Below, in pieces: positions 5,976 through 55,812 of a stretch of 64,000 bases of DNA (position 1 is the first letter of the stretch; each line of letters starts with the position of its first letter). The position numbers and the translations under genes were made by a program. The notes beneath the pieces are model-generated. The model was not told where the DNA came from, did no database searches, and was given only the letters and a program-made list of their open reading frames with translations. Origin of the DNA: a virus (Duplodnaviria > Caudoviricetes); the IMG/VR virus record IMGVR_UViG_3300021408_000002, positions 6,249 through 70,248 of that record. One strand, written 5' to 3'.

Positions 5976-6289
5976 AACCTTCTCGCCTGATCTCGCAGAA
6001 GGAGTATCGCGAGCGGGTCCACGTCCGCATCGAAGCCGGTGAGGTCCCGCTCACCGACGAGCACCGTCGGGCTGCTGTTGTGATCGGCTCGACGAAATGG
6101 GCGAGCGTCCGCGATGTCGCCAAAGAGCTGAACATCTCGATCTCGAAGGCGTGGCTCCTCATCTTGAGCTTGAAGGCCCACGGCATCGTCCGTACCGTTC
6201 CTCGTGACGTGAACGCTCTGGTCCTCGCTCCCGACATCTCGATCATCGCCGGCGATATCTGCCGTGCCATCCCTTTGGAGAATTCATGA
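5972..6289 (+). CDS. Winged-helix HTH protein
   Basis: SVRDVAKELNISISKAWLLILSLKAHGIV. Confidence 0.65.
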   Translation: MKPSRLISQKEYRERVHVRIEAGEVPLTDEHRRAAVVIGSTKWASVRDVAKELNISISKAWLLILSLKAHGIVRTVPRDVNALVLAPDISIIAGDICRAIPLENS

Positions 6290-13282: not shown

Positions 13283-13851
13283 TCATTTCGCTCAGTTACC
13301 AGCAGTTGAATTCCTGCCGCCACTGGGGAACAGCGCGGCACAAGCAGCACCTCGTCGCCAACCGTGAGCGCACCACTCAGGGCCATGCCTGCGCGATGCC
13401 TGCGATCGCGTGGCGCACCTTGGCCGACCGGTTGACGAAGGAAGTGTTCTATGCGTCGACGGGGCGGCACCGCAAGACCCGTCTCGAGCGCGATGGGGTG
13501 CCGGCGACTCGAGCTGCGTTGCAGAAGATCGAGCAGGCGCTCGCCAATATGCAGATGCATCCGGCGTTGCACAACCAGAAGGTCGTCGGCTACTCCGGTG
13601 ACGTCGTGATCGCCTGGCCGCTGCCTGACGGTAAATGGTCGCTGTATCCGGTCCAGGATCAGGCCCCGGTGTTCTTCGTGCCCGTCGTCGACGACAAGTT
13701 CAAGTCGCTCGGCGTCACGACCTCGTGGCGCCCGCAGGCCGACTGTCCGGCCGACCTGCCCGACCTGTTCCCTGATCTAGTGGATCACGTCGGCTGGCTC
13801 GTCGGCGGACATGACGTCGTTGGAGTCGCCGAGGACCACCGAGGCACGTGA
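13279..13851 (+). CDS. Hypothetical protein, convergent with TerL (75-nt overlap)
   Basis: GTGA overlap; last gene of + operon. Confidence 0.6.
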   Translation: MIISLSYQQLNSCRHWGTARHKQHLVANRERTTQGHACAMPAIAWRTLADRLTKEVFYASTGRHRKTRLERDGVPATRAALQKIEQALANMQMHPALHNQKVVGYSGDVVIAWPLPDGKWSLYPVQDQAPVFFVPVVDDKFKSLGVTTSWRPQADCPADLPDLFPDLVDHVGWLVGGHDVVGVAEDHRGT

Positions 13852-16238
13852 CCCGCGGCCTCGCAGGTGGAGGTCGGGGATCAACATTTCGACGACGTTC
13901 GAGTCGAGCATGTCGTTGATGGCGTGCGCGACGACGTCGCAGTTGTGGACCAGGATTCCATTGGCGAAGTAGGTGCCATCCTCAGTCGTCAGGTTGTACA
14001 CCGCGACGTCGTCGCTTACCCCGCATCGCTTTGCCGTGCGCTCGGTGCCATTCCATTCCTTCGGGTGAGCGATGCCACGCGGAAGCAAGCGGTCGGATGC
14101 GGTCAAGAAGGGCCAACTGTTGTGGGCTTCGCGCTCGTAGGCTACGGCTCGCTGAGTGTTCTCGTTCGTGATCACGGCGGGGGAGAGCCTCCAGGTTGGA
14201 GGGGTTGTTGTTGGTAAAGTCGCCGTCAATGTGGTGGACCGCCCATCCTTCCGGGATTGGCCCGTTGATTGACTTCCACACCTCTTGATGTAGCGCCTGA
14301 ACACCTCGCTTGATGTGTTGGCCGCCGGGTTTGTAGTAGTGGCGATGTGCGGGTGTGCTCGAGTTTGGATATCGACGGAACTCGATTCCCGCGAAGACGA
14401 CCGTGTCGACCTCGACGGAGCCTCGCTCGGTCGAGAGGGTGACCAAGGGGTCGCCGTGGCGGCGCATTCGGGCCATGTGCTTGTGGCAAAGACCTCGGCC
14501 GCCCTTGGCGAGGGCCGTGCAATCTTCGATTGAGCAAGGAAGCGTCTTTCGGTTGACCATATGGACACGATATCATCATGCCGACCAAGGTCGCCGAGAT
14601 TCACCCACCCGGACATCGCCCACACGGGATGGTTCCTCGTCCCTACCAGGTCGCCCACCCCGACGACGTCGGCCACCCCGGTGCATCCCGCCCACAGAAC
14701 CCGGGTCCAACCCGAAGCACCCAACACGAATTGCCCGGACCGGACCTGATCCAGGCGGACCTCGCCGGTCGGTGTCGTTACAGCCGTCTCTCCGACTAAA
14801 CATTGGTCGTCGTACCGTCCCTTGCGACCGTCGCCCATCATCTTGCGGTGCTCGTCGATGAACGGCGCAACCCAATCCGGCGACTTGCCATCCTTGCCGC
14901 GGGGCAGCTTCACTCGACCCTGCTGCATCAGTGTCGAGTACGGCCGGGCCCGCTCCTCCTTCGAGCCTTCGGCGCGCGCCATGGTGACGGTGTAGTTCTT
15001 CAGTTCTCTTTTGTAGAACGCAATCACAGCCAGCCCGTCGCCATTCCTGGATCCTTCGATGAGTACGGGAACGGACACTCCGTCGGTGAACGCAGTCACC
15101 TTGACTTCGTCCATCACTTCGTTCGCACCCTTCTGGAATCGGGTGATGTCCTGCACATAGAAGACGTCGTCGACGTCTTTCGTGACGAGCCCACCGACGC
15201 TGTAGTCACCCCCCCCTTCCGAGGCTGCAAGATCCCAGGCTCGCCGGCGGGACTGCATCCACGGTTTGTCGTCCGGGTCGTACCACGCCCACTTATCCGG
15301 GGGGAACATGCCGCCCGTCGGCGAGGTCGGTTCCTGTTCGTACACGACGGAGAAGATGAACGGAACGGTCGTGCGCTTGCGCCGGTAGAAGAACGAGTCG
15401 TGCCAGCGCTCCGGGTCTTCCTCTTCGCCTGGCTTCGAGAACCGTGTCTTCAGGGGCTCGCCTCGTTTCCGGCCGAGGAGGTCGCGCCACTCCGGGTCAT
15501 CCGGGTTCTCTTCGTCGAAGTCGGGTTCGGCGATCGCCTTGAACACGAGGGATTCCCAGCGGTCTCCGTCGTACTCAGGGTCCTTCGCCTGCGCGTCGAT
15601 GCGGCCGGACATGTCGTCGTCCGCGAAGCGGGTGGCCCCGAGGAGCATCGTGCCGCCGGGTTGCAGGCGAGGGAGGATGGCACCGTGAAACTCTGCCCAG
15701 TGCGTTTCCTTCGTCTTCGTTGAGCCGGCTTCCTCCATGCCCTTGATCAGGTCGCCGAGTACGACCAAATCTCCTGGCATACCTGAAATTCGCGAGCCGA
15801 TCCCGACGGACAGCATTCCGCCTTGGTGGCCGGCGAGACGCCATTCCTGTTTCGATTCGTAGTTGGCGTCAACGGTCTGGCCGAAGAACTCGGGCCCCCA
15901 CTTCATGAAGATGTCCCGCACGAGCGCGCCGGATCGGATCGCGAGGTCGTCGGAGTAGGCGATCAGGATGACTCTGGTATCAGGCCAATGGCCGAGCACC
16001 CAGAGAGGAGTGAACAGCTCGACCAGGCTGCTTTTCCCGACTGTGGAGGAGCGTTGATCTTCAGGAACCGCTGGTTCTCTCGGTCACTGATCGCGTCCAT
16101 GATCCGGCCTTCACACATCCGCAGCCACGGATCGGCCTGATATGTCGACCGCGGCCCGTAGAGGTGGGGCGCCAGTGTTTGCGCGAGACGGAGTGGCGAG
16201 CCGACCTTGCGGAGATGTTCGAGATCGGGGTTAATCAT
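13777..16238 (-). CDS. terL: Terminase large subunit, interrupted by a -1 frameshift (16032-16038) and an intein (13942-14802)
   Basis: Walker A APPQSGK|SS after shift; VILIAYSDDLA; LVVLGDLIK (Walker B); nuclease AWDLA...GDYS and YDDQ|CD. Confidence 0.9.
13982..14560 (-). CDS. HNH endonuclease nested out of frame inside the TerL intein
   Basis: Zn finger CSIEDC...GLCHKH...RHGDP; HQEVWKSINGPIPEGWAVHHIDGDFTNNNPSNLEAL; own TATCGT-N6-ATG. Confidence 0.9.
   Translation of the reverse strand: MVNRKTLPCSIEDCTALAKGGRGLCHKHMARMRRHGDPLVTLSTERGSVEVDTVVFAGIEFRRYPNSSTPAHRHYYKPGGQHIKRGVQALHQEVWKSINGPIPEGWAVHHIDGDFTNNNPSNLEALPRRDHEREHSASRSLRARSPQQLALLDRIRPLASAWHRSPEGMEWHRAHGKAMRGKRRRRGVQPDD
14561..14572 (-). 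promoter_or_regulatory. Candidate leaderless promoter for the nested HNH
   Basis: Minus strand TATCGT-gtccat-ATG; same spacing as about ten other genes here. Confidence 0.55.
16032..16038 (-). other. -1 slippery heptamer G GGA AAA in TerL Walker A
   Basis: tcG GGA AAA gc; -1 frame continues SSLVELFTPLWVLGHWPD into the 740-aa ORF. Confidence 0.6.
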
Positions 16239-16692
16239 CGACTACCTCGGCGTCGACGATGTGATCCATCTCGTCGAGCGGCCCACCGAGAGCGAGCGCC
16301 TGGTGGCCGTGTTTCGCCATCAGTTCGAGGGCTGCGCTGGTGACGGCGAGCACCCGTTCCGCGGCTGGTGTGCCCTGGTGGCTGACGTTGACGCGGTGTG
16401 TCGGCGGGCGCCATCCGCGGTCCGCCCCCTTGCAGTACAGCCACATTTGTATCATTGGCACGTTGCCGGCCTGAGCCATCTGCGCCGACTTCTCTTCGAT
16501 GGACTCGATGAGCTGCTCGCCGGCCGCTTCCATCACTTCGACGAACTGGGCGTCCGACTGTAGTTCTCGGAGCTGGCGAAGGCTCCAGCCGACGGCGATC
16601 GCAGCGTTCTTCGGTCCGACCCCTTTCGAGATCATGCCGAGGAACTCCTCCATGCCGTCCAGGACGACGGGAGACAGCAGATCGGTCGACAT
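16231..16692 (-). CDS. Probable terminase small subunit
   Basis: Directly upstream of TerL; N-terminal HTH (KNAAIAVGWSLRQL); AGNVPMIQMWL. Confidence 0.65.
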   Translation of the reverse strand: MSTDLLSPVVLDGMEEFLGMISKGVGPKNAAIAVGWSLRQLRELQSDAQFVEVMEAAGEQLIESIEEKSAQMAQAGNVPMIQMWLYCKGADRGWRPPTHRVNVSHQGTPAAERVLAVTSAALELMAKHGHQALALGGPLDEMDHIVDAEVVDD

Positions 16693-16701
16693 GGACCTAC
16701 G

Positions 16702-17091
16702 TTACTCGCCGTCGGTGATCTCGAGCACGACGACCGCCACCATCCAGGCCGCCAGCCACCACAGCACTGGCGCGGGAACGGGTTCGACGAAGATCCGGAA
16801 GCCGAGAAGGACCAGGGCCGTGCAATACGCGGAGGCGCAATACGCGCATTGGATCATGTAGCCCAGCTTGTTCCGCAACCAGTACGCCACCTTGCCTCGC
16901 GAGTGGTATTCGGGTTCGGCGAGTGGGCGGAAACGGAAGCCGTCGCGCTCCCGGGTTTTCACTTGGACGGGGTCTTGGAGGCCGCCGACGATCCAGTTGC
17001 GGGGCTCGTCGAACAGGACATCGAGGCACACCAGCCGGGTCAGCCGGGCCGATGCGAGTGAGATCAGGAGGAAGGCGAGCCAGACGTTCAC
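16702..17091 (-). CDS. DUF1360-like membrane protein
   Basis: SARLTRLVCLDVLFDEPR...LGYMIQCAYCASAY plus TM helices. Confidence 0.8.
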   Translation of the reverse strand: MNVWLAFLLISLASARLTRLVCLDVLFDEPRNWIVGGLQDPVQVKTRERDGFRFRPLAEPEYHSRGKVAYWLRNKLGYMIQCAYCASAYCTALVLLGFRIFVEPVPAPVLWWLAAWMVAVVVLEITDGE

Positions 17092-17423
17092 CGATTACCA
17101 CATTCGCGGCATTTGTCGTTGAGGGTGAGGACGATCTCGACGACGGTGGGGATCGTGCCCTTGAACTCTTGGGACACCCGCAAGGATTCACCGTTGAGCC
17201 GCAGCTTGCCTTTCTCTTCGGTGACCGTCACGTTCTGCATGACATCGACCTGTTCGCCGCGCCGCTCGCCCGAGTCGAACGACAGGATCGTCACCTTCGA
17301 CTTCGGGGATTTGCCGATGATGAGCACGACGCCCCGTTCGATGTTCGGGTACATCAGTTCCTTGTTCTTGGCGTAGGAGATCGATCCGTTGTAGCGAGGC
17401 TTCTGGAGGATGGTGGCTGCCAT
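17088..17423 (-). CDS. Hypothetical protein
   Basis: TAAGCT-N6-ATG; GTGA overlap. Confidence 0.6.
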   Translation of the reverse strand: MAATILQKPRYNGSISYAKNKELMYPNIERGVVLIIGKSPKSKVTILSFDSGERRGEQVDVMQNVTVTEEKGKLRLNGESLRVSQEFKGTIPTVVEIVLTLNDKCRECGNR

Positions 17424-17449
17424 CGCGTCAGCTTAGTGGTCCTACCATG

Positions 17450-17890
17450 TCAGCGGGTGCGGGCGTCCCTCACAGCAAACTGCATCGGCCGCCCGTCGGC
17501 CTCGGCCCGGCGGATGATCGCCTCCGGGTTGCGCTGTTTACGGAGCCACAGCAGATCTTCGAGCGGCATGGAGCGGGTCCCGAAGTCCTCTTCGCAGGCG
17601 ACAGCGAACCGGGCACAGCCCCATTGCACAGAGCACAGCGAGCAGTGGCCGAGCGCGACTTCGGTGAGGACGCTGCCGAGGATTGGTTCATCGCCGACCA
17701 TGTAGGTTTCGTGGTCCTCGACGATCCAGATGGACGGTCGTCCACCTTTCGGTGCTGACGTCACCACCAGGTTCTCGGATATGCATCGTGCTCCGGCGCG
17801 ATAGCCGATCGGCTCGGGCTTGTGGCCCTTGGTGTAGGCGCGGGGGAGTTGGTCGATGTTGGCGTCCCCTGCGGTCACATACCGGGCCAT
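17450..17890 (-). CDS. Divergent WhiB-like protein
   Basis: ARC...CSLCSVQWGC (C-x2-C-x5-C) but lacks G[VI]WGG. Confidence 0.45.
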   Translation of the reverse strand: MARYVTAGDANIDQLPRAYTKGHKPEPIGYRAGARCISENLVVTSAPKGGRPSIWIVEDHETYMVGDEPILGSVLTEVALGHCSLCSVQWGCARFAVACEEDFGTRSMPLEDLLWLRKQRNPEAIIRRAEADGRPMQFAVRDARTR

Positions 17891-17899
17891 ATAGCTGAG

Positions 17900-17909
17900 A
17901 TTGTAAGAT
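17900..17909. promoter_or_regulatory. Overlapping divergent -10 boxes (TACAAT on -, TAAGAT on +)
   Basis: ATTGTAAGAT between ATG 17890 (-) and ATG 17917 (+). Confidence 0.55.
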
Positions 17910-17916
17910 GCTTGGA

Positions 17917-18150
17917 ATGGAAAGTGGTGGCAATCCGCAGTCACCGCAGCAACGCAAGATGTTCAAAGTCGCATCGGAGATCGGCCTGACCCGCGACGAA
18001 CGCCTCGAGTTGGTGGCCTATCTGCTGCGCCGCGACGTCAAGTCGTGGGGCGATCTCGATGACATCCAGGTGCGCAGGGTCTTGGATGCCCTCGAGGGAT
18101 ACGAACTCATCCGGGCCCTCATGGATCTGCGACCTAATGTCGAGACGTGA
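17917..18150 (+). CDS. Small helical protein, antisense to late operon (GemA/DUF1018 N-terminal-like, weak)
   Basis: QQRKMFKVASEIGLTRDERLEL...SWGDLDDIQVRRVLDAL. Confidence 0.6.
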   Translation: MESGGNPQSPQQRKMFKVASEIGLTRDERLELVAYLLRRDVKSWGDLDDIQVRRVLDALEGYELIRALMDLRPNVET

Positions 18151-18356
18151 AGCTCTTCGATCCACCGCCGGACCGGAACGAGTACCGGGTTTGGAATGAG
18201 ACTGCGACGCGCCCACTCACCGACGGAGCGTTTGGGTCGGCTTCGGCTTCGCGCCGGAAGCGTTGCGCCGAACTGAGTGCCCGGATGACCGGCTGTGAAC
18301 GTCCACGTCGGCGGCTGATCAAGTCGCCGTGGACCGGACGCACCTACCTGGTTTAG
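18147..18356 (+). CDS. Small basic hypothetical protein
   Basis: GTGA overlap; convergent overlap with 18353. Confidence 0.45.
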   Translation: MKLFDPPPDRNEYRVWNETATRPLTDGAFGSASASRRKRCAELSARMTGCERPRRRLIKSPWTGRTYLV

Positions 18357-19618
18357 GCACCGAGGAGCTGCACGACGCGCTCCTCGCAAAGACTGCGCGC
18401 ATTCACGAGGCGGCCGACCTTCACCCCGTGCTCCTTCGCGTAGATCTTGGCGTCACGGGCGCCGGAGCGGAGGAACACCTTCTCGTGTTCGGTGCCACGC
18501 CCGACGATGTAGAAGTGGGTGCCCTGGAAGATGCCGCTGTAAGCGGCACAGTTATGTACGATGATCCCTTGTGAGACGTACCAGTGCGTCTTCGTATGGA
18601 GGTTGTAGACATGGCACGAGACCGAATCGCACTGGATGTCGATGATCTCATCGAGCGCTACGAGGCTGGAGATTCCCTTGTTTCCATCGGTGCCCGCCAT
18701 GGCGTCAGCAAGACGGTCGTCACTCAACGTTTGCGCCGCGCTGGCGTCTTGAAATCCGAAGGCCGTCGCTGCCCCCCCATCGACATGGCCGCGGCGGCGG
18801 CGCTTTACCTGGCGGGTGATGGGCTGAAACCTCTCGCCCGTTCTTTCGGCGTTAACCCTCGCACACTCCAGCGACGTCTGATCCAACTTGATATCCCCAT
18901 TCGGGGACGGTCGGAGACCCAGTTGATCCGAGCGTCGCGCATGACTAGCGACCAGCGGCGAAACCAGACTATGGCTGCCCACGCCGCAGTTCGCGGGCGG
19001 ATCGTCCCAGACCGGGAAGTGATAGCGCGAGCTGTTGACCGCGAACACACGCTCTCGATGCGCCGTATAGGAGAAGCCGAATTCCAAGCCCTGCTCGTGG
19101 CTCGCGGCATTGAGGTCGCGCCCCAGAAGGCCGTCTGGCGATACAACCTCGATCTCGCTGTGGCTCCCGTCGCCGTGGAAATCCATCGCAGTACTAGTCA
19201 CCCGATGAGGTTCACTGAACTCCGCAAGCGAGTCGAAGATCTCGCTGATCGGGGATGGATGACGCTCTGGATTTGGCTGAACAAGCGAAAGCCTGTCGAG
19301 TATGCCGACCTCGCCGTCGATAAGGCGATCGCCCACATCAACACAGCCCAGCGAGACCCAACCACGGTTCGTGAGTACAGGGTGATTCGGAGTAGCGGTG
19401 AGGACGCGCCTTGACCTCAGGGTGATCTGAACCATGTCGCCGTCATACCGGCGGCGAGTTGCCTGTTGGATGCCTGGGGCCACCACGAGCGCATCGCCAG
19501 GAAGACATTCGTACGGGTCGTCGCCGAGGAGCACCATCGACCGGTCGTTGCGGGTCAGGTCTTCGAACTGGGCGTTCAACTTCGCCAGAGCACCACGCTT
19601 ATTACAACCGCAGCCCAT
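18353..19618 (-). CDS. Intein-containing precursor; spliced product is a 102-aa unknown protein (MGCGCNK...)
   Basis: GAGGAG RBS, ATG 19618; 37-aa N-extein, 65-aa C-extein. Confidence 0.8.
   Translation of the reverse strand: MGCGCNKRGALAKLNAQFEDLTRNDRSMVLLGDDPYECLPGDALVVAPGIQQATRRRYDGDMVQITLRSRRVLTATPNHPVLTNRGWVSLGCVDVGDRLIDGEVGILDRLSLVQPNPERHPSPISEIFDSLAEFSEPHRVTSTAMDFHGDGSHSEIEVVSPDGLLGRDLNAASHEQGLEFGFSYTAHRERVFAVNSSRYHFPVWDDPPANCGVGSHSLVSPLVASHARRSDQLGLRPSPNGDIKLDQTSLECARVNAERTGERFQPITRQVKRRRRGHVDGGAATAFGFQDASAAQTLSDDRLADAMAGTDGNKGISSLVALDEIIDIQCDSVSCHVYNLHTKTHWYVSQGIIVHNCAAYSGIFQGTHFYIVGRGTEHEKVFLRSGARDAKIYAKEHGVKVGRLVNARSLCEERVVQLLGA
18551..19507 (-). mobile_element. Class-1 intein (319 aa); no in-frame endonuclease
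   Basis: Block A CLPGDALV; block B TATPNHPVLTNRGW; block F/G VYNLHTKTHWYVSQGIIVHN followed by Cys +1. Confidence 0.9.
18611..19414 (+). CDS. Antisense nested gene: tandem HTH + DUF559/Vsr-like PD-(D/E)xK endonuclease
   Basis: GGAGGT RBS 7 nt upstream; two HTH repeats; E...QKAVWRYNLDLAVAPVAVEIH...H...LADRGWMTLWIW. Confidence 0.82.
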   Translation: MARDRIALDVDDLIERYEAGDSLVSIGARHGVSKTVVTQRLRRAGVLKSEGRRCPPIDMAAAAALYLAGDGLKPLARSFGVNPRTLQRRLIQLDIPIRGRSETQLIRASRMTSDQRRNQTMAAHAAVRGRIVPDREVIARAVDREHTLSMRRIGEAEFQALLVARGIEVAPQKAVWRYNLDLAVAPVAVEIHRSTSHPMRFTELRKRVEDLADRGWMTLWIWLNKRKPVEYADLAVDKAIAHINTAQRDPTTVREYRVIRSSGEDAP

Positions 19619-19632
19619 GTCATCTCCTCTGA

Positions 19633-19830
19633 TTACGCCGGCACGAGGCCATGGCATCGGATCTCGGCGATCGCACCGCGGAGTCCGTCCGTGACGGCGA
19701 GCGGGATGTCGCGTATATGCGCGGCATCGTGAAGCTGGTCCTCGATGACATGTGAGAGTAGTCGCTCTGCGAGCGCAAGGAGATCACTGAGTGTGTCAGC
19801 ATCGACCGCAACCAGACGAGGGCTCTCCAT
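19633..19830 (-). CDS. Small hypothetical protein
   Basis: TAACAT-N6-ATG. Confidence 0.55.
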   Translation of the reverse strand: MESPRLVAVDADTLSDLLALAERLLSHVIEDQLHDAAHIRDIPLAVTDGLRGAIAEIRCHGLVPA

Positions 19831-19852: not shown

Positions 19853-20539
19853 CTATTTATGCGCGAAGAACGAAGATCCGGAACGCTGCCACTTCCCGAA
19901 CTCGGTGTGGACGAGCGGGCCAGTGACAAATCGTTCACGCCATCGGGTCTCGCGGAGGGCGTAGTTGAATGCCGCCATGTCCGTCATATCGCCAGCGTCC
20001 ATCGGGTGGCTGATGAGGCGGGCGAGGAATTCGAGGACATCCGCCCGGCCGCCGCCGAGTAGGCCGGCGTTGAGGAGCACGCGATCAGGAAAGGTTTCGG
20101 CCATCGGTTTGATCGACGGATGGTTGTCGACGATCCACTTGTTCGAGATCGTGTCGTTCTCTGAGCCAACGTAGAGATGGTCGGCCTCCATCGTCGCCCA
20201 CGGCGGACGCAGCATGACGACGTCGGAGCCGTCAGTCATGAACACCTTGTCGATGTCCGGTCGGCTGTCGAGCCAGGCGCGCAGGTGAGCCCAACGGGCG
20301 AAGAACAGGTTGGTGTCGTCCGGTTCGACTTGGACGAACTCGACGGGGACTCGAGCCCACGCCTGGCCGAGACGCTGATGATGTAGCGATAGTTCGTCGT
20401 GGATCACGACTGCATGACTGCCGACCAGCGACTTCAACCATTTCTGGAGGATCGCGATGTCCGGCTTGTAGTTGTCGCAGCCCACGCACATGGGATTGGG
20501 GATCGAAGTAAGAAGACAGGTCATCACGACGTTCCTCAT
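19853..20539 (-). CDS. Glycosyltransferase-like (GT-A) protein
   Basis: ARWAHLRAWL...KVFMTDGSDVV...LNAGLLGG...DMAAFNY. Confidence 0.7.
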   Translation of the reverse strand: MRNVVMTCLLTSIPNPMCVGCDNYKPDIAILQKWLKSLVGSHAVVIHDELSLHHQRLGQAWARVPVEFVQVEPDDTNLFFARWAHLRAWLDSRPDIDKVFMTDGSDVVMLRPPWATMEADHLYVGSENDTISNKWIVDNHPSIKPMAETFPDRVLLNAGLLGGGRADVLEFLARLISHPMDAGDMTDMAAFNYALRETRWRERFVTGPLVHTEFGKWQRSGSSFFAHK

Positions 20540-21033
20540 CTACGTGCCCACGCCCGCACGTCTTCGCCGAGTTGGTCGACTTCCCACTCCGAGAAGCCAG
20601 CGGCTTGAAGGGCGTACTCCAGCTCGTCTGGCTGGACATTCTGGTACCAGCCGCCAGGGGTGAGTGGATCGTCGTGGTGGAGGCCGTGCACCTCGCGGCC
20701 GGGGCCGGCCATCGTCATGACGCACGTCCCGCCCGGCTTCAGCATCATGCAGATGTTGGCGATGATGGCCGCGTTCGAAGGTGTATGTTCTCCCACTTCC
20801 GCGTAGAGAACGAGGTCGACGAGTTCGGGTGGCTGCCAGGAGGCGCCGTCGGCGACGACATCTACGCCTAGCCCATCGGCCGCGTCGACGACAGTCCAGT
20901 CGGCGTTCCGGAAGACCCAGCGGGCGTGACCGTTCGTCTCGCGGCCGCCGATGTCGACGGCAGTGACTTCGGCTGTTTCGAGGCCAGTGATGGCGGCGAA
21001 GTCGGCTACAAATTTGAGAGCGGCGTCATGCAT
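20536..21033 (-). CDS. Class I SAM-dependent methyltransferase
   Basis: AVDIGGR...VDVVADG...DLVLYAEVGEH...MLKPGG. Confidence 0.8.
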   Translation of the reverse strand: MHDAALKFVADFAAITGLETAEVTAVDIGGRETNGHARWVFRNADWTVVDAADGLGVDVVADGASWQPPELVDLVLYAEVGEHTPSNAAIIANICMMLKPGGTCVMTMAGPGREVHGLHHDDPLTPGGWYQNVQPDELEYALQAAGFSEWEVDQLGEDVRAWARR

Positions 21034-21703
21034 CCTGGTTCTCCGGTTCTCGTTCGGCGATGATGGCCCGCATGGCTGCGGCGTTGTTGCGGGCGTTGTA
21101 GTAGCGCTGGCTGAGCGCCGAGTTCGGCTGCCACCTTTCGGAGCCGATGTCGCGGCAGGCGCCATCGTGATAGAGCGACAACGCCATTCCTTTGTGCCAG
21201 CGCGGTCGTCCAAGGATCGCTGTGGCCGCCGAGGTGAGGGCCCCGTCCTCGCCTCCGTAGCCGGTGAAGCGTTCGTCCTGGCCGCCGCATTCCCAGTAGG
21301 AGGCGGGTTTGATCGCGATCACCGACGAGTCATGTTGGAGGGCTGTGCGGGTCGGCCACTTACCGGCATGGTAGGCCGCTGTTTCTTCTTCGGTGAGGTA
21401 CAGCATGGTGTCGAGCCCGAAGTGCAGGAGTCCGTCGTCGAATGCTCCGAACACGGCGGCTGTCACCGCCTTCGAGTCGGGGATCGTGTCGGCGTCGTTC
21501 AGAACGACGACGTCAGCGCCATCGGCTTCGGCGACGCGGACGCAGGTATTGCGAGAACCAGCACGCGAGAACTCTTCGTGGCCGGAGTCCGCAGTCCCGA
21601 AGTACCAGTCGGGGAAGTTCTCGAGGTACCAGTCCCGGACTGTCTGGAACGCCGCCAGACGATCAGGGGTTGGCCGCCAGGGACACATCACGGCGACTCT
21701 CAT
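21026..21703 (-). CDS. GT-A glycosyltransferase (GT2/GT7-like)
   Basis: FSRAGSRN; VVLNDADT (DxD); GGQDERFTGYGGED. Confidence 0.85.
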   Translation of the reverse strand: MRVAVMCPWRPTPDRLAAFQTVRDWYLENFPDWYFGTADSGHEEFSRAGSRNTCVRVAEADGADVVVLNDADTIPDSKAVTAAVFGAFDDGLLHFGLDTMLYLTEEETAAYHAGKWPTRTALQHDSSVIAIKPASYWECGGQDERFTGYGGEDGALTSAATAILGRPRWHKGMALSLYHDGACRDIGSERWQPNSALSQRYYNARNNAAAMRAIIAEREPENQDA

Positions 21704-22638
21704 CCAACGACCTCTTCTAGTTTTTTGATGAACCTCGTCAGCGAGTCGTCCTTGGCGAGCTGGTCGACCCGCTGCTTGCAGAGCTTCACCTGTCTCGCAT
21801 ACTTTCGGGGATCGTCGAGATCTTCGATAATGTCCAACCAGGCGTCGAGGTCATCGCGGTCGGCAAACAGTCCGGCCGGGCCGAGTGACTCCTTCAGTCC
21901 GGGAGTGGGGTGGGCGATCACGGGGACACTGCACATCGCCTCCACGCCGATCATGCCCCAGGTTTCATGGTCCGACGGCATGAGGAGGATGCGGGTCTTC
22001 GCCAAGATGTCGTCGCGGACGTTGCCGGTCGGCTTGATGATCGTGACGTTCTTGCGGGCCTGGCCTTCCGGCTGGGGTCCGTAGCCGCCTCGGACGCCGA
22101 GGAAGAGACGCTTCGGGAGGTAGCGGGCGAGGGCGTCGAACGTCAGGTAGCCCTTCGGTTCGATCAGGTTGACGAGCGTGATCGCGTCGCCTGGAGTCGT
22201 CGCAAATTTGGTGGGGTCGATGATGGGGTGGCACACCATGTGTTCGCCGGTGTAGCCGACGTATTCGGCGAGACTGTGCGAGTTGAACACGGTGAGGGTG
22301 GGTTCGCCGTGCTTCACAAGGTTGTGGAACAGGGTGTCGTGGGTGCCGTGGACGAAACGGACGGATGGCATGCGTTCCGTCATTGCGACACGATGGAGGC
22401 GGGCGTCGTCGCCGTGGATCGAGACGCAGACGTCGGTGCGGGCGAACCGGGGGCGCATGTTGGAACCGAGGTGTTCGACGTGGACGCCGTCGATGTCGTA
22501 GGACTTGATGCGGTCAGGGACTTGCACGATGACTTTGTGGCCGGCGGCGACGAGACCGGCGTAGTACTGATGCATCGCGATCCAGGAGCCAACGCGGGCG
22601 TACGGCGCGTAACCCAATTGGAAGCCTAAAATCCTCAC
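21700..22638 (-). CDS. GT-B glycosyltransferase (GT4-like)
   Basis: ILLMPSDHETWGMIGVEAM...VPVIAHPTPGLKESLG. Confidence 0.85.
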   Translation of the reverse strand: MRILGFQLGYAPYARVGSWIAMHQYYAGLVAAGHKVIVQVPDRIKSYDIDGVHVEHLGSNMRPRFARTDVCVSIHGDDARLHRVAMTERMPSVRFVHGTHDTLFHNLVKHGEPTLTVFNSHSLAEYVGYTGEHMVCHPIIDPTKFATTPGDAITLVNLIEPKGYLTFDALARYLPKRLFLGVRGGYGPQPEGQARKNVTIIKPTGNVRDDILAKTRILLMPSDHETWGMIGVEAMCSVPVIAHPTPGLKESLGPAGLFADRDDLDAWLDIIEDLDDPRKYARQVKLCKQRVDQLAKDDSLTRFIKKLEEVVG

Positions 22639-44347: not shown

Positions 44348-44923
44348 ATGACAACACCAGTCTGCCTTGTCGATGTGTGTGAACGCCCCGCCAAGACCCG
44401 CGGCTGTTGCCAAATGCATTACTTTCGCCTTCTGAAACACGGGGACCCACTTGGTGGCCGCACTCCTCCCGGAGAGGCCGCGGCCTTCTTCGAGGTCGGC
44501 GTCGTCCTCGACACCGACCTGTGCATCATCTGGCCTTATTCGACTGAATACGACGGTTACGGCAAATTCCAGGCCAACAAAAAGAAGGTCAAGGTTCACA
44601 TCGCCGCTTGCGCTCGGGCTCACGGACCACGTCCGCCGGGCCTAGTCGTTCGTCATCTCTGCAACAATCCTCCGTGTTTCAACGGTCGGCATCTTCGATG
44701 GGGGACCCGCAAGGAGAATAGCGAAGACATGATCCTTAACGGCACGACTCCCGCTGGCGAGAGGGCGCCGTGGGCGAAGTTGACGTGGGCCATCGTTGAT
44801 GAGATTCGAAGGCGGCTCTCACGAGGGGAGACGATCGCTGACCTCGCTGTGGAGTTCAATGTTGTCTACGGGACGGTGTGGCATGTTGCCCGCGGATCGA
44901 CCTGGTTACGCCCCGGAATATAA
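44348..44923 (+). CDS. Zn-finger + HNH endonuclease + HTH, antisense insertion
   Basis: CLVDVC...GCCQMHY..LLKHGDP; CIIWP; VRHLCNNPPCFNGRHLRWGTRKEN. Confidence 0.88.
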   Translation: MTTPVCLVDVCERPAKTRGCCQMHYFRLLKHGDPLGGRTPPGEAAAFFEVGVVLDTDLCIIWPYSTEYDGYGKFQANKKKVKVHIAACARAHGPRPPGLVVRHLCNNPPCFNGRHLRWGTRKENSEDMILNGTTPAGERAPWAKLTWAIVDEIRRRLSRGETIADLAVEFNVVYGTVWHVARGSTWLRPGI

Positions 44924-55276: not shown

Positions 55277-55812
55277 TGAACGTCTTGGAACAAGCCATGG
55301 AGCTGTGCTCCGTCCCTGGGTGCACGCGACGATCGAAGTGTCGCGGATGGTGCGGGGCACATCACGAACGCTGGCGAATGCATGGGGATGTTCAGGCGGA
55401 TCGACCGGTAGGCAAGCTGCCTCGGTCGGCTTGCCTGGCGTGCGGGAGCGAGGTTCGTCGGTCCACTAACCAATATTGCAGCCAGCGCTGTTCGAGCCTC
55501 CACCGGGATGCGGCCGCCACCCTTCGCTCCCTGGAGGTTCATCCGCGTTCGGTGCCCGTAGGGACGGAGCGGATGCGGGTTCATTCGAAAACGGGGGACA
55601 CCCGCGTTTGGGTCAAAGTCGCCGAACCACACACTTGGAGGCCCAGGGCGGTCGCCGTCTGGGAAGCCACCCACGGGCCACTACCAAGGGGCATGATCGT
55701 CCATCACAAGAATCGTGACGGCCTGCATGACCAAATCGACAACCTCGAAGCGATGACCCGCGCTGAGCACCTCGAGGAACACCGTCAGGAACTGACGGAG
55801 GCGAAGCGATGA
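55276..55812 (+). CDS. Zn-finger + HNH endonuclease
   Basis: CSVPGC...GWCGAHH..W.MHGD; WEATHGPLPRGMIVHHKNRDGLHDQIDNL. Confidence 0.88.
   Translation: MNVLEQAMELCSVPGCTRRSKCRGWCGAHHERWRMHGDVQADRPVGKLPRSACLACGSEVRRSTNQYCSQRCSSLHRDAAATLRSLEVHPRSVPVGTERMRVHSKTGDTRVWVKVAEPHTWRPRAVAVWEATHGPLPRGMIVHHKNRDGLHDQIDNLEAMTRAEHLEEHRQELTEAKR

Follow-up and report, generated by a model that had tools for sequence, protein, structure and literature searches.

Endonuclease genes nested out of frame within two inteins of a metagenomic phage genome

Canonical inteins such as PI-SceI carry an in-frame LAGLIDADG or HNH domain that is released by splicing. Two inteins in the window—the 64,000 nucleotides of a Caudoviricetes genome analyzed here (IMG/VR record IMGVR_UViG_3300021408_000002, positions 6,249 to 70,248)—raise the question of where their homing endonucleases reside and how they are made. 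A preliminary description of the region had claimed that both possess complete splicing motifs with no endonuclease in their own frame, the spacer between the splicing blocks being instead a full endonuclease gene in another frame, with its own expression signal. Our analysis makes it very probable that both are bona fide class-1 inteins, and that a separate gene overprinted on each linker encodes the homing endonuclease, which is made independently.

Anatomy of the two inteins

The positions originally assigned to both inteins and their nested reading frames held, giving the following features:

13777–15999, minus strand: TerL ORF, host of intein 1 (740 aa as listed; Pfam Terminase_6C, 1.6e-13)
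13942–14802, minus strand: intein 1, class-1 Hint domain (287 aa; Cys1, TRNHP, VYNL...VHN|C)
14561–14802, minus strand: N-terminal splicing region of intein 1 (~81 aa), 5' of the HNH start
13982–14560, minus strand: HNH_3 homing-endonuclease ORF nested in intein 1 (192 aa; Pfam HNH_3)
14567–14575, minus strand: extended -10-like box TGATATCGT, 6 nt 5' of the HNH ATG
18353–19657, minus strand: host gene of intein 2 (exteins ~50 and 65 aa; intein-less homologues exist)
18551–19507, minus strand: intein 2, class-1 Hint domain (319 aa; Pfam Intein_splicing, 1.9e-9, above cutoff)
18611–19414, plus strand: Vsr/EDxHD-like homing-endonuclease ORF, antisense to intein 2 (267 aa from a conserved ATG)
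18598–18603, plus strand: Shine-Dalgarno GGAGGT of the Vsr-like gene, reverse complement of block F codons N-L-H

The splicing motifs are complete in both cases. Intein 1 reads DDQ|CLVGE...TRNHP...VYNLTTEDGTYFANGILVHN|CD and is inserted at DDQ|C, within the TerL nuclease domain; intein 2 reads PYE|CLPGD...TPNHP...HVYNLHTKTHWYVSQGIIVHN|CAA and is inserted at PYE|CAA. The exteins of intein 2 belong to a ~100-aa phage protein family of unassigned function—no Pfam or PHROG family matched the host protein—and intein-less homologues (P0097–P0108) run continuously over the junction, for example LLGEDDYA|CESYSG.

The ORF nested in intein 1 is read in the -1 frame of the intein, i.e. one base upstream, and was assigned to Pfam HNH_3 (6.3e-16; 58 bits against a cutoff of 24.8) and to PHROG HNH families (E as low as 1e-17). 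Its product consists of an N-terminal CxxC...CxxH finger followed by the HNH core, with H109, H110, N118, N122, H131, and H135 invariant in the family, and its tail (RRGVQPDD, then stop) overprints block F (VYNLTT) of the intein. The ORF within intein 2 is codon-aligned with the intein frame on the opposite strand and open already from 18584, ahead of the conserved start ATG at 18611. The protein was modeled at a pLDDT of 91.8 (AlphaFold2) as two HTH modules plus a Vsr-fold nuclease, with structural matches to I-Bth0305I (3r3p, Z 10.8) and 1cw0 (Z 10.6); D190 and E199 are invariant across 59 sequences.

Neither intein frame matched a nuclease family in profile searches. In the sense frame of intein 2, AlphaFold2 assigned pLDDT >90 to residues 1–60 and 281–319 and <50 to spacer residues 126–280. 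Residues 80–125 had middling values (59–86) and overlap the Vsr catalytic core, such that the border between dual coding and junk is not sharp. The TerL spacer shows an atypical GC2 pattern.

Recurrence, frame-specific selection, and start signals

Counting alternate-frame nucleases in homologous spacers, as had been proposed, we found an HNH gene nested in the TerL intein at 75 of 85 related loci and the Vsr-like gene antisense and codon-aligned inside the intein at all 82 IMG/VR loci; every one of these 75 and 82 nested ORFs was open over the matched region. At the HNH loci, the intein frame was always HNH frame +1, and the insertion site was constant, (H/N)D(D/H)x|C...HN|C(D). The host ORF was TerL in 10 of 10 sampled, and none of these intein frames contained a nuclease domain; host ORFs of the related TerL inteins match Hint_2 and Intein_splicing. 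The N-terminal splicing region of intein 1 found matches of 25–46% identity at 53 of the 85 loci, stopping at the HNH start (tblastn), and the remaining same-strand frame was open over the matched HNH core at just 2 of 85. The Vsr-like family also extends to phages of Proteobacteria, including Aaphi23 and Salmonella, Klebsiella, Vibrio, and Pseudomonas phages. In this sequence alone, the probability of an open frame arising by chance, estimated by synonymous resampling, was P = 0.19 for TerL over the HNH ORF and P = 0.085 for the antisense strand at intein 2; the case against chance thus rests on the relatives.

The one-base offset at intein 1 might suggest that the HNH belongs in frame with the intein as one of its domains and was displaced by assembly indels or by programmed ribosomal frameshifting, for which -1 is the usual direction. 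TerL in the same record is indeed already frameshifted: its N-terminal piece and the first half of Walker A lie in a different frame (15963–16238), the alignment to TerL of a related locus (L010) begins at GKSS of Walker A, and continuity requires a frameshift at GGGAAAA (16032–16038), so that the record may carry a sequence error or recoding there. Against this, an identical offset recurs in a cultured phage, TJE1, as well as at 75 independent loci spread over different samples, and the HNH ORFs have their own -10 box or SD. A stop codon interrupts the HNH frame 4 codons 5' of the ATG, and the HNH stop falls inside block F, 19–85 nt ahead of the splice junction; because the same bases are then read in two frames, HNH tail and block F could never form one polypeptide. 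We regard this explanation as extremely improbable.

Selection was assessed in both frames. For HNH pairs at 72–97% nucleotide identity, pN/pS was 0.08–0.21 in the HNH frame and 0.7–8.6 in the intein frame over the HNH gene, with nucleotide changes clustering at HNH codon position 3. The Vsr frame similarly gave 0.15–0.34 versus 0.75–2.4 in the intein frame, and its amino-acid identity exceeded that of the intein frame in every divergence bin. As judged from these substitution patterns, the nuclease frames of both families are under purifying selection, while the intein-frame spacers evolve neutrally, with the stop-free state alone maintained—in line with the junk peptide originally proposed.

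The claim that each nested gene has its own expression signal was borne out in part. The ATG of the Vsr-like gene is the reverse complement of the His codon in C-H-V-Y-N-L (intein block F); a start codon occupies the homologous position at 55 of 58 loci, and lies within one codon of it at the other three, and an SD-like motif precedes it at 45 of 58. Upstream of the HNH gene, the box TGATATCGT is a candidate promoter of a leaderless mRNA. TANNNT occurs 5–8 nt ahead of the candidate HNH start at 32 of 62 distinct loci (background 2% per position). Because the box shares bases with conserved intein codons (G-D-I), the intein may account for some of its conservation, although 8 of 9 free-standing HNH homologues, included in the 32, have it too. 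A consensus sigma-70 scan of 13700–19800 returned zero promoters, and 5' of the Vsr-like gene we found just weak, non-conserved -10-like hexamers, and no promoter was detected for the antisense transcript. On the motif evidence, the start signals travel with the nuclease genes.

These observations also bear on whether the nested ORFs are decaying relics, unexpressed or inactive, within now immobile mini-inteins with a long junk linker. The missing antisense promoter would fit such decay, as would the GC3 of the HNH ORF (0.66, under the genome's usual 0.75–0.85) and the apparent vertical inheritance of some Vsr-intein groups (bioRxiv 10.1101/2025.01.02.630785). We nonetheless consider it unlikely, given nuclease-frame pN/pS of 0.1–0.3 over many independent pairs, catalytic residues that are intact and invariant, a Vsr-like start codon and SD kept in 45–58 of 58 loci, reading frames open throughout, and an element far better conserved between genomes than its host gene.

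Mobility and free-standing relatives

Compared with L010, the window shows 60% identity in the nested HNH but 26% in the TerL exteins. For the small host protein, one allele lacking the intein matches the C-extein of the window at 86% identity. At two loci (L007 and L008), a homologous free-standing HNH gene lies directly downstream of an intein-less TerL that reads HDD|CVD at the homing site, in support of the earlier suggestion that free-standing endonuclease genes invaded the inteins.

HNH proteins are said, in work by Kala et al. in 2014, to act together with TerL in DNA packaging by HK97-like cos phages. The nested HNH might likewise be a domesticated packaging helper of TerL rather than (only) a homing enzyme, kept within terL for co-inheritance; its family is tied to TerL and under strong purifying selection, and in L007 the free-standing homologue is flanked by terL and the portal gene. 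However, HNH_3 proteins with zinc-finger and zinc-ribbon DNA-binding modules are of the type annotated as phage homing endonucleases, and conservation is higher in the element than in its host gene. In the phage collection, the best matches to TerL are confined to the exteins, indicating that the insert is missing from most TerL genes of these families, and the second, Vsr-like case, in unrelated host proteins, would go unexplained. A packaging role therefore seems to us a slim prospect, and an overprinted homing-endonuclease gene the better reading.

Relation to known systems and a model for nested inteins

The preliminary description allowed that such inteins might already have been reported, and rightly so: Gosselin, Arsenault, and Gogarten (bioRxiv 10.1101/2025.01.02.630785) described the architecture, the invasion model, and the Vsr-like antisense family, observing antisense VSR-like HEN inteins (“VSR -1 ORF”) in minor capsid proteins only. 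The MuF VSR-like inteins of actinobacteriophages share with intein 2 the nuclease family, the codon-aligned antisense geometry, the proposed origin by invasion of a free-standing HEG, and an equal fold match (Z 10.6 to 1CW0 in both studies); the window's Vsr-like ORF matches the MuF intein of Vivi2 (gp14) on its antisense strand at 38% identity (3e-39, tblastn). The host of intein 2 is instead the ~100-aa unassigned protein, and our analysis adds measurements of selection in each frame and of the SD and ATG that derive from block F. Vivi2, like the window, combines both nested types: its uninterrupted TerL intein contains a same-strand nuclease ORF in the -1 frame, with an N-terminal CxxC...CxxH finger and a junk intein-frame spacer. 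Its nuclease, however, is of the Endonuclease_7 type (DHDH...CN) rather than HNH_3, shows no significant similarity to the window HNH past the finger (E 0.06), and occupies a different TerL site (VLVM|C...SN|T, against HDDx|C...HN|CD here).

In fractured genes, a free-standing Vsr-like or GIY-YIG endonuclease gene lies between the halves of a split intein (Dassa et al. 2009, PMC2677866), and the EDxHD family has I-Bth0305I as its prototype (Taylor et al. 2011, PMC3239194). These systems share with the present ones a Vsr-like fold with N-terminal DNA-binding modules, a separate nuclease gene in the intein's endonuclease slot, and a nuclease 3' end overlapping downstream intein coding sequence. 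Their host gene is broken into two ORFs that require trans splicing, whereas here the intein frame is open through the nuclease gene and splicing would occur in cis; the Vsr-like gene here is also on the opposite strand. The ShiLan domain, a hidden out-of-frame HNH in a mycobacteriophage DNA methylase (Arsenault et al. 2025, PMC11855218), likewise overprints an insertion read through by the host gene, with leaderless initiation proposed as for the window HNH. ShiLan has no splicing domain, so the host protein keeps the junk peptide; in the window's inteins, its removal would fall to a Hint domain. Two elements of our analysis are new: an out-of-frame family of the HNH_3 type, and a host protein not previously associated with the Vsr intein.

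Anatomy, recurrence, fixed frame, nuclease-only selection, folds, start signals, intein-less alleles, and free-standing relatives all support the overprinted-gene model. Under this model, TerL or the small protein would be translated through the nuclease gene in another frame, yielding an unstructured spacer of ~155–190 residues that separates the N- and C-terminal Hint segments, and the Hint domain would splice out both itself and the spacer. The nuclease would be made independently of the host protein: the HNH_3 enzyme probably from a leaderless mRNA begun at the internal extended -10 box abutting its ATG, and the Vsr/EDxHD-like enzyme from an antisense transcript via the SD and ATG complementary to block F codons. 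Presumably, the nuclease cuts intein-less host-gene alleles in co-infecting phages, after which recombinational repair would copy intein and nuclease gene jointly. Hint blocks, a nuclease between the splicing regions, and the presumed homing cycle would thus be common to these and canonical inteins, but the nuclease, there part of the intein polypeptide, would here be a separate translation product and the linker unconstrained. Such nested intein/nuclease layouts are common in uncultured phages.

Nested nuclease reading frames in the two inteins

The window's source record (70,248 bp, rated complete by CheckV; ~63% G+C) contains two inteins, each with a nuclease ORF in a different frame, and the coordinates, splicing motifs, and HNH and Vsr-like assignments put forward in the preliminary description were borne out. 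The features are as follows (vertical bars mark splice junctions):

15999-13777, minus strand: large terminase (TerL) ORF (Terminase_6C, 1.6e-13)
14802-13942, minus strand: intein 1, class-1, 287 aa; starts CLVGE, contains TRNHP, ends VYNLTTEDGTYFANGILVHN, then CD
14560-13982, minus strand: HNH_3 endonuclease ORF, 192 aa, one base out of the intein 1 frame
19657-18353, minus strand: host ORF of intein 2, with 50 + 65 extein residues flanking the 319-aa intein
19507-18551, minus strand: intein 2, PYE|CLPGD...TPNHP...HVYNLHTKTHWYVSQGIIVHN|CAA
18584-19414, plus strand: open frame of the Vsr-like antisense ORF, in codon register with intein 2

Intein 1 is inserted directly after ...GRYDDQ in TerL and has the class-1 motifs C1, TRNH, and VHN|C. 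By itself it matches Hint_2 at 14 bits, under the cutoff; homologues at the same site reach 31-45 bits to Hint_2 and 41-51 bits to Intein_splicing. A related locus, L007, carries an intein-less TerL allele that is contiguous across the site (...SRHDD|CVDCF...), and we infer from the essential role of TerL that its intein splices. The nested ORF matches HNH_3 (PF13392; 6.3e-16, 58.2 bits, cutoff 24.8) and PHROG HNH families (E-values to 1e-17), and combines an N-terminal CxxC...CxxH finger with six residues—H109, H110, N118, N122, H131, and H135—that are invariant or at least 90% conserved among 33 sequences. Its last residues, GVQPDD followed by the stop codon, share bases with intein block F (VYNLTT); among 69 homologues in the protein database, one subgroup has the same (R/G)VQPDD(E) tail, a shadow of that block. 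In the HNH frame this region of the window has the low GC2 that is normal for coding sequence, and in the intein frame its GC2 pattern is abnormal.

Two side observations concern the same genome. The TerL N-terminus (15963-16238, minus strand) and the 740-aa ORF do not share a frame. The 740-aa ORF is open upstream to ~16041 and there encodes VGKSSLVELF, aligning with LGKSSLASRW of the TerL of related locus L010; the upstream ORF ends ...INAPPQSGKAAW, and a one-base shift at GGGAAAA (16032-16041 region, minus strand) would fuse the two; the break comes either from an indel in the assembly or from programmed -1 slippage. The nested ORF also has weak HNH-like matches at ~44354-44668 (plus strand; E 1.6e-4, open frame of 253 aa) and at 55585-55791 (plus strand; E 3.2e-8, open frame of 265 aa), which may be additional free-standing endonuclease genes.

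Intein 2 matches Intein_splicing above its cutoff (1.9e-9, 38 bits, cutoff 35.8) and has the class-1 motifs C1, TPNH, and VHN|C; residues C1, N41, H42, and N319 are invariant among 33 sense-frame homologues. An exhaustive representative search with its C-extein recovered a family of phage proteins of ~100-108 aa, to which the small host protein belongs and which is contiguous across the junction, including P0097 (LLGEDDYA|CESYSGIFQG, 86% identical to the window) and P0098 (SGDDSN|CPSYAG). These intein-less alleles (P0097-P0108) share the consensus ...DDxx|C.(S/P)Y.G... and would define the homing site of intein 2. The same C-extein gave no tblastn match in the phage collection, nor did megablast of the 6-kb region. 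The family (window 18353-18550 and 19508-19657, minus strand) has an N-terminal M(G/A)CGxCG, central GDDxxC..Y.G and GTEHEK, and a C-terminal LC..RV..LLGA, and it matched no Pfam or PHROG family. Directly upstream of the small gene lies a glycosyltransferase (PHROG 1579, 3.6e-48; 19853-22638, minus strand).

Pfam matches of the antisense ORF are weak (HTH_38 and HTH_28 at ~3e-4; REase_MTES_1575 at 1.2e-3), and a profile search returned the HTH structure 2lvs at 8e-9, with 3r3p and 3hrl weak at 0.012-0.015. Its predicted structure, built on a 27-sequence alignment (mean pLDDT 91.8), contains two HTH modules, a helical linker, and an alpha/beta nuclease domain, with helices 19-101 modelled at high confidence. 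Plain Foldseek on this multidomain model gave weak E-values, and VIA re-alignment resolved the nuclease domain, which superimposes on the catalytic domain of I-Bth0305I (3r3p_A; Z 10.8, rmsd 3.1, 93 of 97 residues) and on Vsr (1cw0_A; Z 10.6, 110 residues), unrelated structures scoring Z <=6.7 apart from two ribosomal chains. Conserved acidic residues in 59 sequences (E164 in 54, D190 and E199 in all, D/E222 in 47) fit the EDxHD set by order and spacing, not by a printed structural alignment, and the His column is ambiguous, being divided between alignment positions H201 and H206 (24-28 of 59 each). The catalytic residues of I-Bth0305I are E170/D196/H213/D222 (PMC3239194), and an extra invariant Glu in Vsr-like endonucleases was noted by Dassa et al. 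(PMC2677866).

That neither intein frame holds a recognisable endonuclease also stood: Pfam gave no nuclease family match in either one, and each runs uninterrupted across the complete nuclease ORF. In the AF2 model of the intein 2 sense frame (33-sequence alignment), pLDDT exceeds 90 for residues 1-60 and 281-319, the beta-rich Hint core, and falls below 50 for spacer residues 126-280, with no nuclease fold found; such a fold in the intein frame would, by the preliminary description's own test, have refuted the claim. Residues 80-125 (~19133-19270, minus strand) have middling values (59-86) despite overlapping the Vsr catalytic core on the opposite strand; on this model, the stretch may truly encode two proteins, or the values may be an echo, in the modelling, of conservation on the antisense strand. 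DFHGDG, a conserved motif of the sense frame, mirrors PVAVEI, which is invariant in the Vsr frame.

Distribution among relatives and frame-specific selection

When synonymous codons were resampled according to the codon usage of the genome itself, the TerL frame stayed open across the HNH ORF in 19% of resamplings and the other frame in 0.5%, while the codon-aligned antisense frame of the Vsr-like ORF was open in 8.5%; both elements occupy the alternative frame least prone to stops. The window alone does not argue strongly against chance, and the weight of the evidence therefore falls on relatives.

An alignment-based scan of IMG/VR yielded 438 HNH relatives, and we examined the best 80 of these together with four other loci and the window (85 loci). 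In 75 of the 85, a long ORF in frame HNH+1 encloses the HNH ORF and has homologues of the window's N-terminal intein region just upstream of the HNH and of the window's C-terminal blocks and C-extein just downstream. The remaining same-strand frame spans the matched HNH core without a stop in only two of the 85. The Cys1 codon precedes the HNH start by 194-305 nt across nested loci (leaving aside those where the script chose an outlying start or a second intein), and the HNH stop lies 19-85 nt upstream of the splice junction. The intein invariably interrupts the nuclease domain of TerL at (H/N)D(D/H)x|C ... (H/S)N|C(D/T). Ten host ORFs were sampled. All are terminases that match Hint or Intein_splicing and have no nuclease match in the intein frame; one comes from the cultured phage TJE1 of Tetrasphaera, and terL is the sole annotation at this place in its record. 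In the related loci L070 (587-3739) and L046, TerL apparently carries two inteins, with Hint_2 at residues 154-187 and a second Hint/Intein_splicing match from ~710; a nested HNH occurs only within the second, at the nuclease-domain site.

The HNH gene is free-standing in the remaining 10 loci. Two of them, L007 (1546-3657) and L008, encode an intein-less 474-aa TerL with HDD|CVD at the homing site and, 30 nt downstream, a 218-aa HNH homologue with C-terminal zinc ribbons and 51% identity to the nested HNH, which may be the free-living form of the invader.

For the Vsr-like family, tblastn of the antisense ORF matched the antisense strand of a MuF-like minor capsid gene in the Gordonia phage Vivi2 (38%, 3e-39) and 124 more phage records, among them Aaphi23 and phages of Salmonella, Klebsiella, Vibrio, Pseudomonas, and Mycobacterium; in the same records, matches to the intein in the sense frame are weaker (31%, 2e-24). 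A locus scan with the single Vsr-like protein gave no relative and a 27-sequence alignment gave no conserved stretch, and a 9-sequence alignment served as the query. The Vsr relatives number 96. All 82 fetched loci, 74 of them distinct, have the Vsr-like ORF antisense to, and codon-aligned with, an intein-containing ORF of 300-1,378 aa. Most of these inteins occupy the MuF ...N|CRC site, and about 12 are at other sites; the small host protein of the window differs from these in turn.

To compare selection between frames, we aligned codons on the nuclease frames for all pairs, excluding the overlaps with splicing blocks. Among the 73 nested loci of the HNH family, pairs with 72-97% nucleotide identity differ mostly at HNH codon position 3, and pN/pS is 0.08-0.21 in the HNH frame against 0.7-8.6 in the intein frame; a single cluster, 98.6% identical and with five differences, is the sole exception. 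Each bin shows the higher amino-acid identity in the HNH frame (0.77 versus 0.44 at 70-80% nucleotide identity). GC by codon position did not discriminate between the two codon-aligned antisense frames of intein 2, and we therefore relied on substitution patterns there as well: pN/pS is 0.15-0.34 in the Vsr frame against 0.75-2.4 in the intein frame, and identity is higher in the Vsr frame in all bins (for example, 87% against 69% over 209 codons between related loci L135 and L143). The two-frame selection check proposed in the preliminary description came out in favour of the nested genes, with pN/pS low in the nuclease frames and near one or higher in the intein frames.

Start signals and expression

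The Vsr-like start codon is homologous to the window's ATG at 18611 in 55 of 58 loci, and lies within one codon of it in the other three. In reverse complement, on the intein strand, the bases of this start are read as the His codon of block F (G-H-V-Y-(N/D/T)-L-(Q/E/H)-T), and those of the Shine-Dalgarno sequence (SD; GGAGGT at 18598-18603 in the window, found in 45 of 58 loci) as the N-L-Q/H codons of that motif. A sigma-70 consensus scan found no promoter, and conservation upstream of the Vsr-like gene amounts to weak TANNNT enrichment at -51, -46, and -32 (16-24% of loci). The HNH gene of the window lacks an SD. Its ATG is separated by 6 nt from the end of an extended -10-like box, TGATATCGT, and the free-standing homologues of L007 and L008 have the same kind of box (TAGCGT) 7 nt upstream of theirs. 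The claim that each nuclease has its own expression signal was partly borne out: the SD and ATG of the Vsr-like gene and a candidate -10-like box of the HNH gene are present, and a convincing antisense promoter did not emerge.

Among 62 distinct HNH loci, TANNNT occurs 5-8 nt upstream of the candidate start in 32, including 8 of 9 free-standing genes (chance, 2% per position); another 27 have an SD, and the two classes barely overlap. HNH expression would then proceed from leaderless mRNA in high-G+C hosts and by internal SD-driven initiation elsewhere. Programmed -1 frameshifting into the HNH frame was considered and rejected because a stop lies four codons before the HNH ATG.

Mobility, precedents, and the origin of mobile inteins

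Between the window and L010, identity is 60% for the HNH, 41% for the N-terminal and 64% for the C-terminal part of the intein, and only 26% for the TerL exteins, and the Vsr intein is found in unrelated host proteins. This pattern fits horizontal spread of the intein and its nuclease gene as a unit. Putative homing, through cleavage of the insert-less allele and gene conversion, is indirectly suggested by an element more conserved than its host gene, its sporadic distribution, and the intein-less alleles. The proposal that free-standing endonuclease genes invaded mini-inteins, giving rise to mobile inteins, gains support from the free-standing HNH genes beside intein-less TerL.

The preliminary description had anticipated that such elements might appear in actinophage intein surveys, and the architecture is indeed already described: Gosselin, Arsenault, and Gogarten surveyed PhagesDB, found in predicted structures an in-frame spacer without a fold, and proposed invasion of inteins by free-standing HEGs (bioRxiv 10.1101/2025.01.02.630785). 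Their Supplemental Table 1 lists Vivi2 gp14 as "VSR -1 ORF" and gp2 as "OOF ENDO VII", so that two types in one genome are already on record. The Vivi2 TerL intein resembles intein 1 in having a nested ORF in the -1 frame with a similar N-terminal finger, but differs in the catalytic part of that ORF, which is of Endonuclease_7 type (DHDH...CN), and in its TerL site; a single family uniting the two nested ORFs was rejected, as they show no significant similarity. Related precedents are the split-intein "fractured genes" with free-standing Vsr-like genes (PMC2677866), I-Bth0305I (PMC3239194), and the hidden HNH of ShiLan (PMC11855218). Against the literature compared, four elements appear to be new: the out-of-frame family of HNH_3 type in the nuclease domain of TerL, along with how abundant it is; the small host protein of the Vsr intein; selection measured directly in each frame; and nuclease start signals built into, or travelling with, the intein. 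The gain over the preprint lies in breadth, quantitative selection evidence, and a new nuclease family and host protein.

Taken jointly, these results incline us, with some reserve, toward regarding the separate nuclease in these two families not as a rare accident but as the dominant and stable condition of ancient dual-coding modules whose parts have become co-adapted. There would have been one capture per family, in the frame least stop-prone (+1 sense or codon-aligned antisense), and the nuclease translation signals would have become fused with the most conserved splicing codons (GHVYNLQ read backwards giving SD and ATG), so that neither partner could change alone. The HNH_3/TerL family, with 438 IMG/VR relatives and ~88% of those sampled nested, would then represent a fifth, unreported type of non-canonical intein.

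The textbook intein is a single polypeptide with a splicing domain and a nuclease domain, and standard gene callers permit one gene per stretch of DNA. As a result, at such loci either the nuclease is hidden, as in TJE1 and Vivi2, where only TerL or MuF is annotated, or the host gene is lost; on the JGI contig L009 (2857-4032), the caller annotated the Vsr-like ORF and left out the MuF/intein ORF that lies antisense to it. Hundreds of environmental phage genomes are probably mis-annotated in this way.

The cases described here show that splicing and nuclease functions can be two genes on the same DNA, which bears on how mobile inteins originated. Both families lend themselves to clean tests of dual-coding constraints, leaderless internal promoters, and collaborative homing and, if the joint reading is true, would provide a natural test system for a "splicing first, endonuclease later" origin of mobile inteins.
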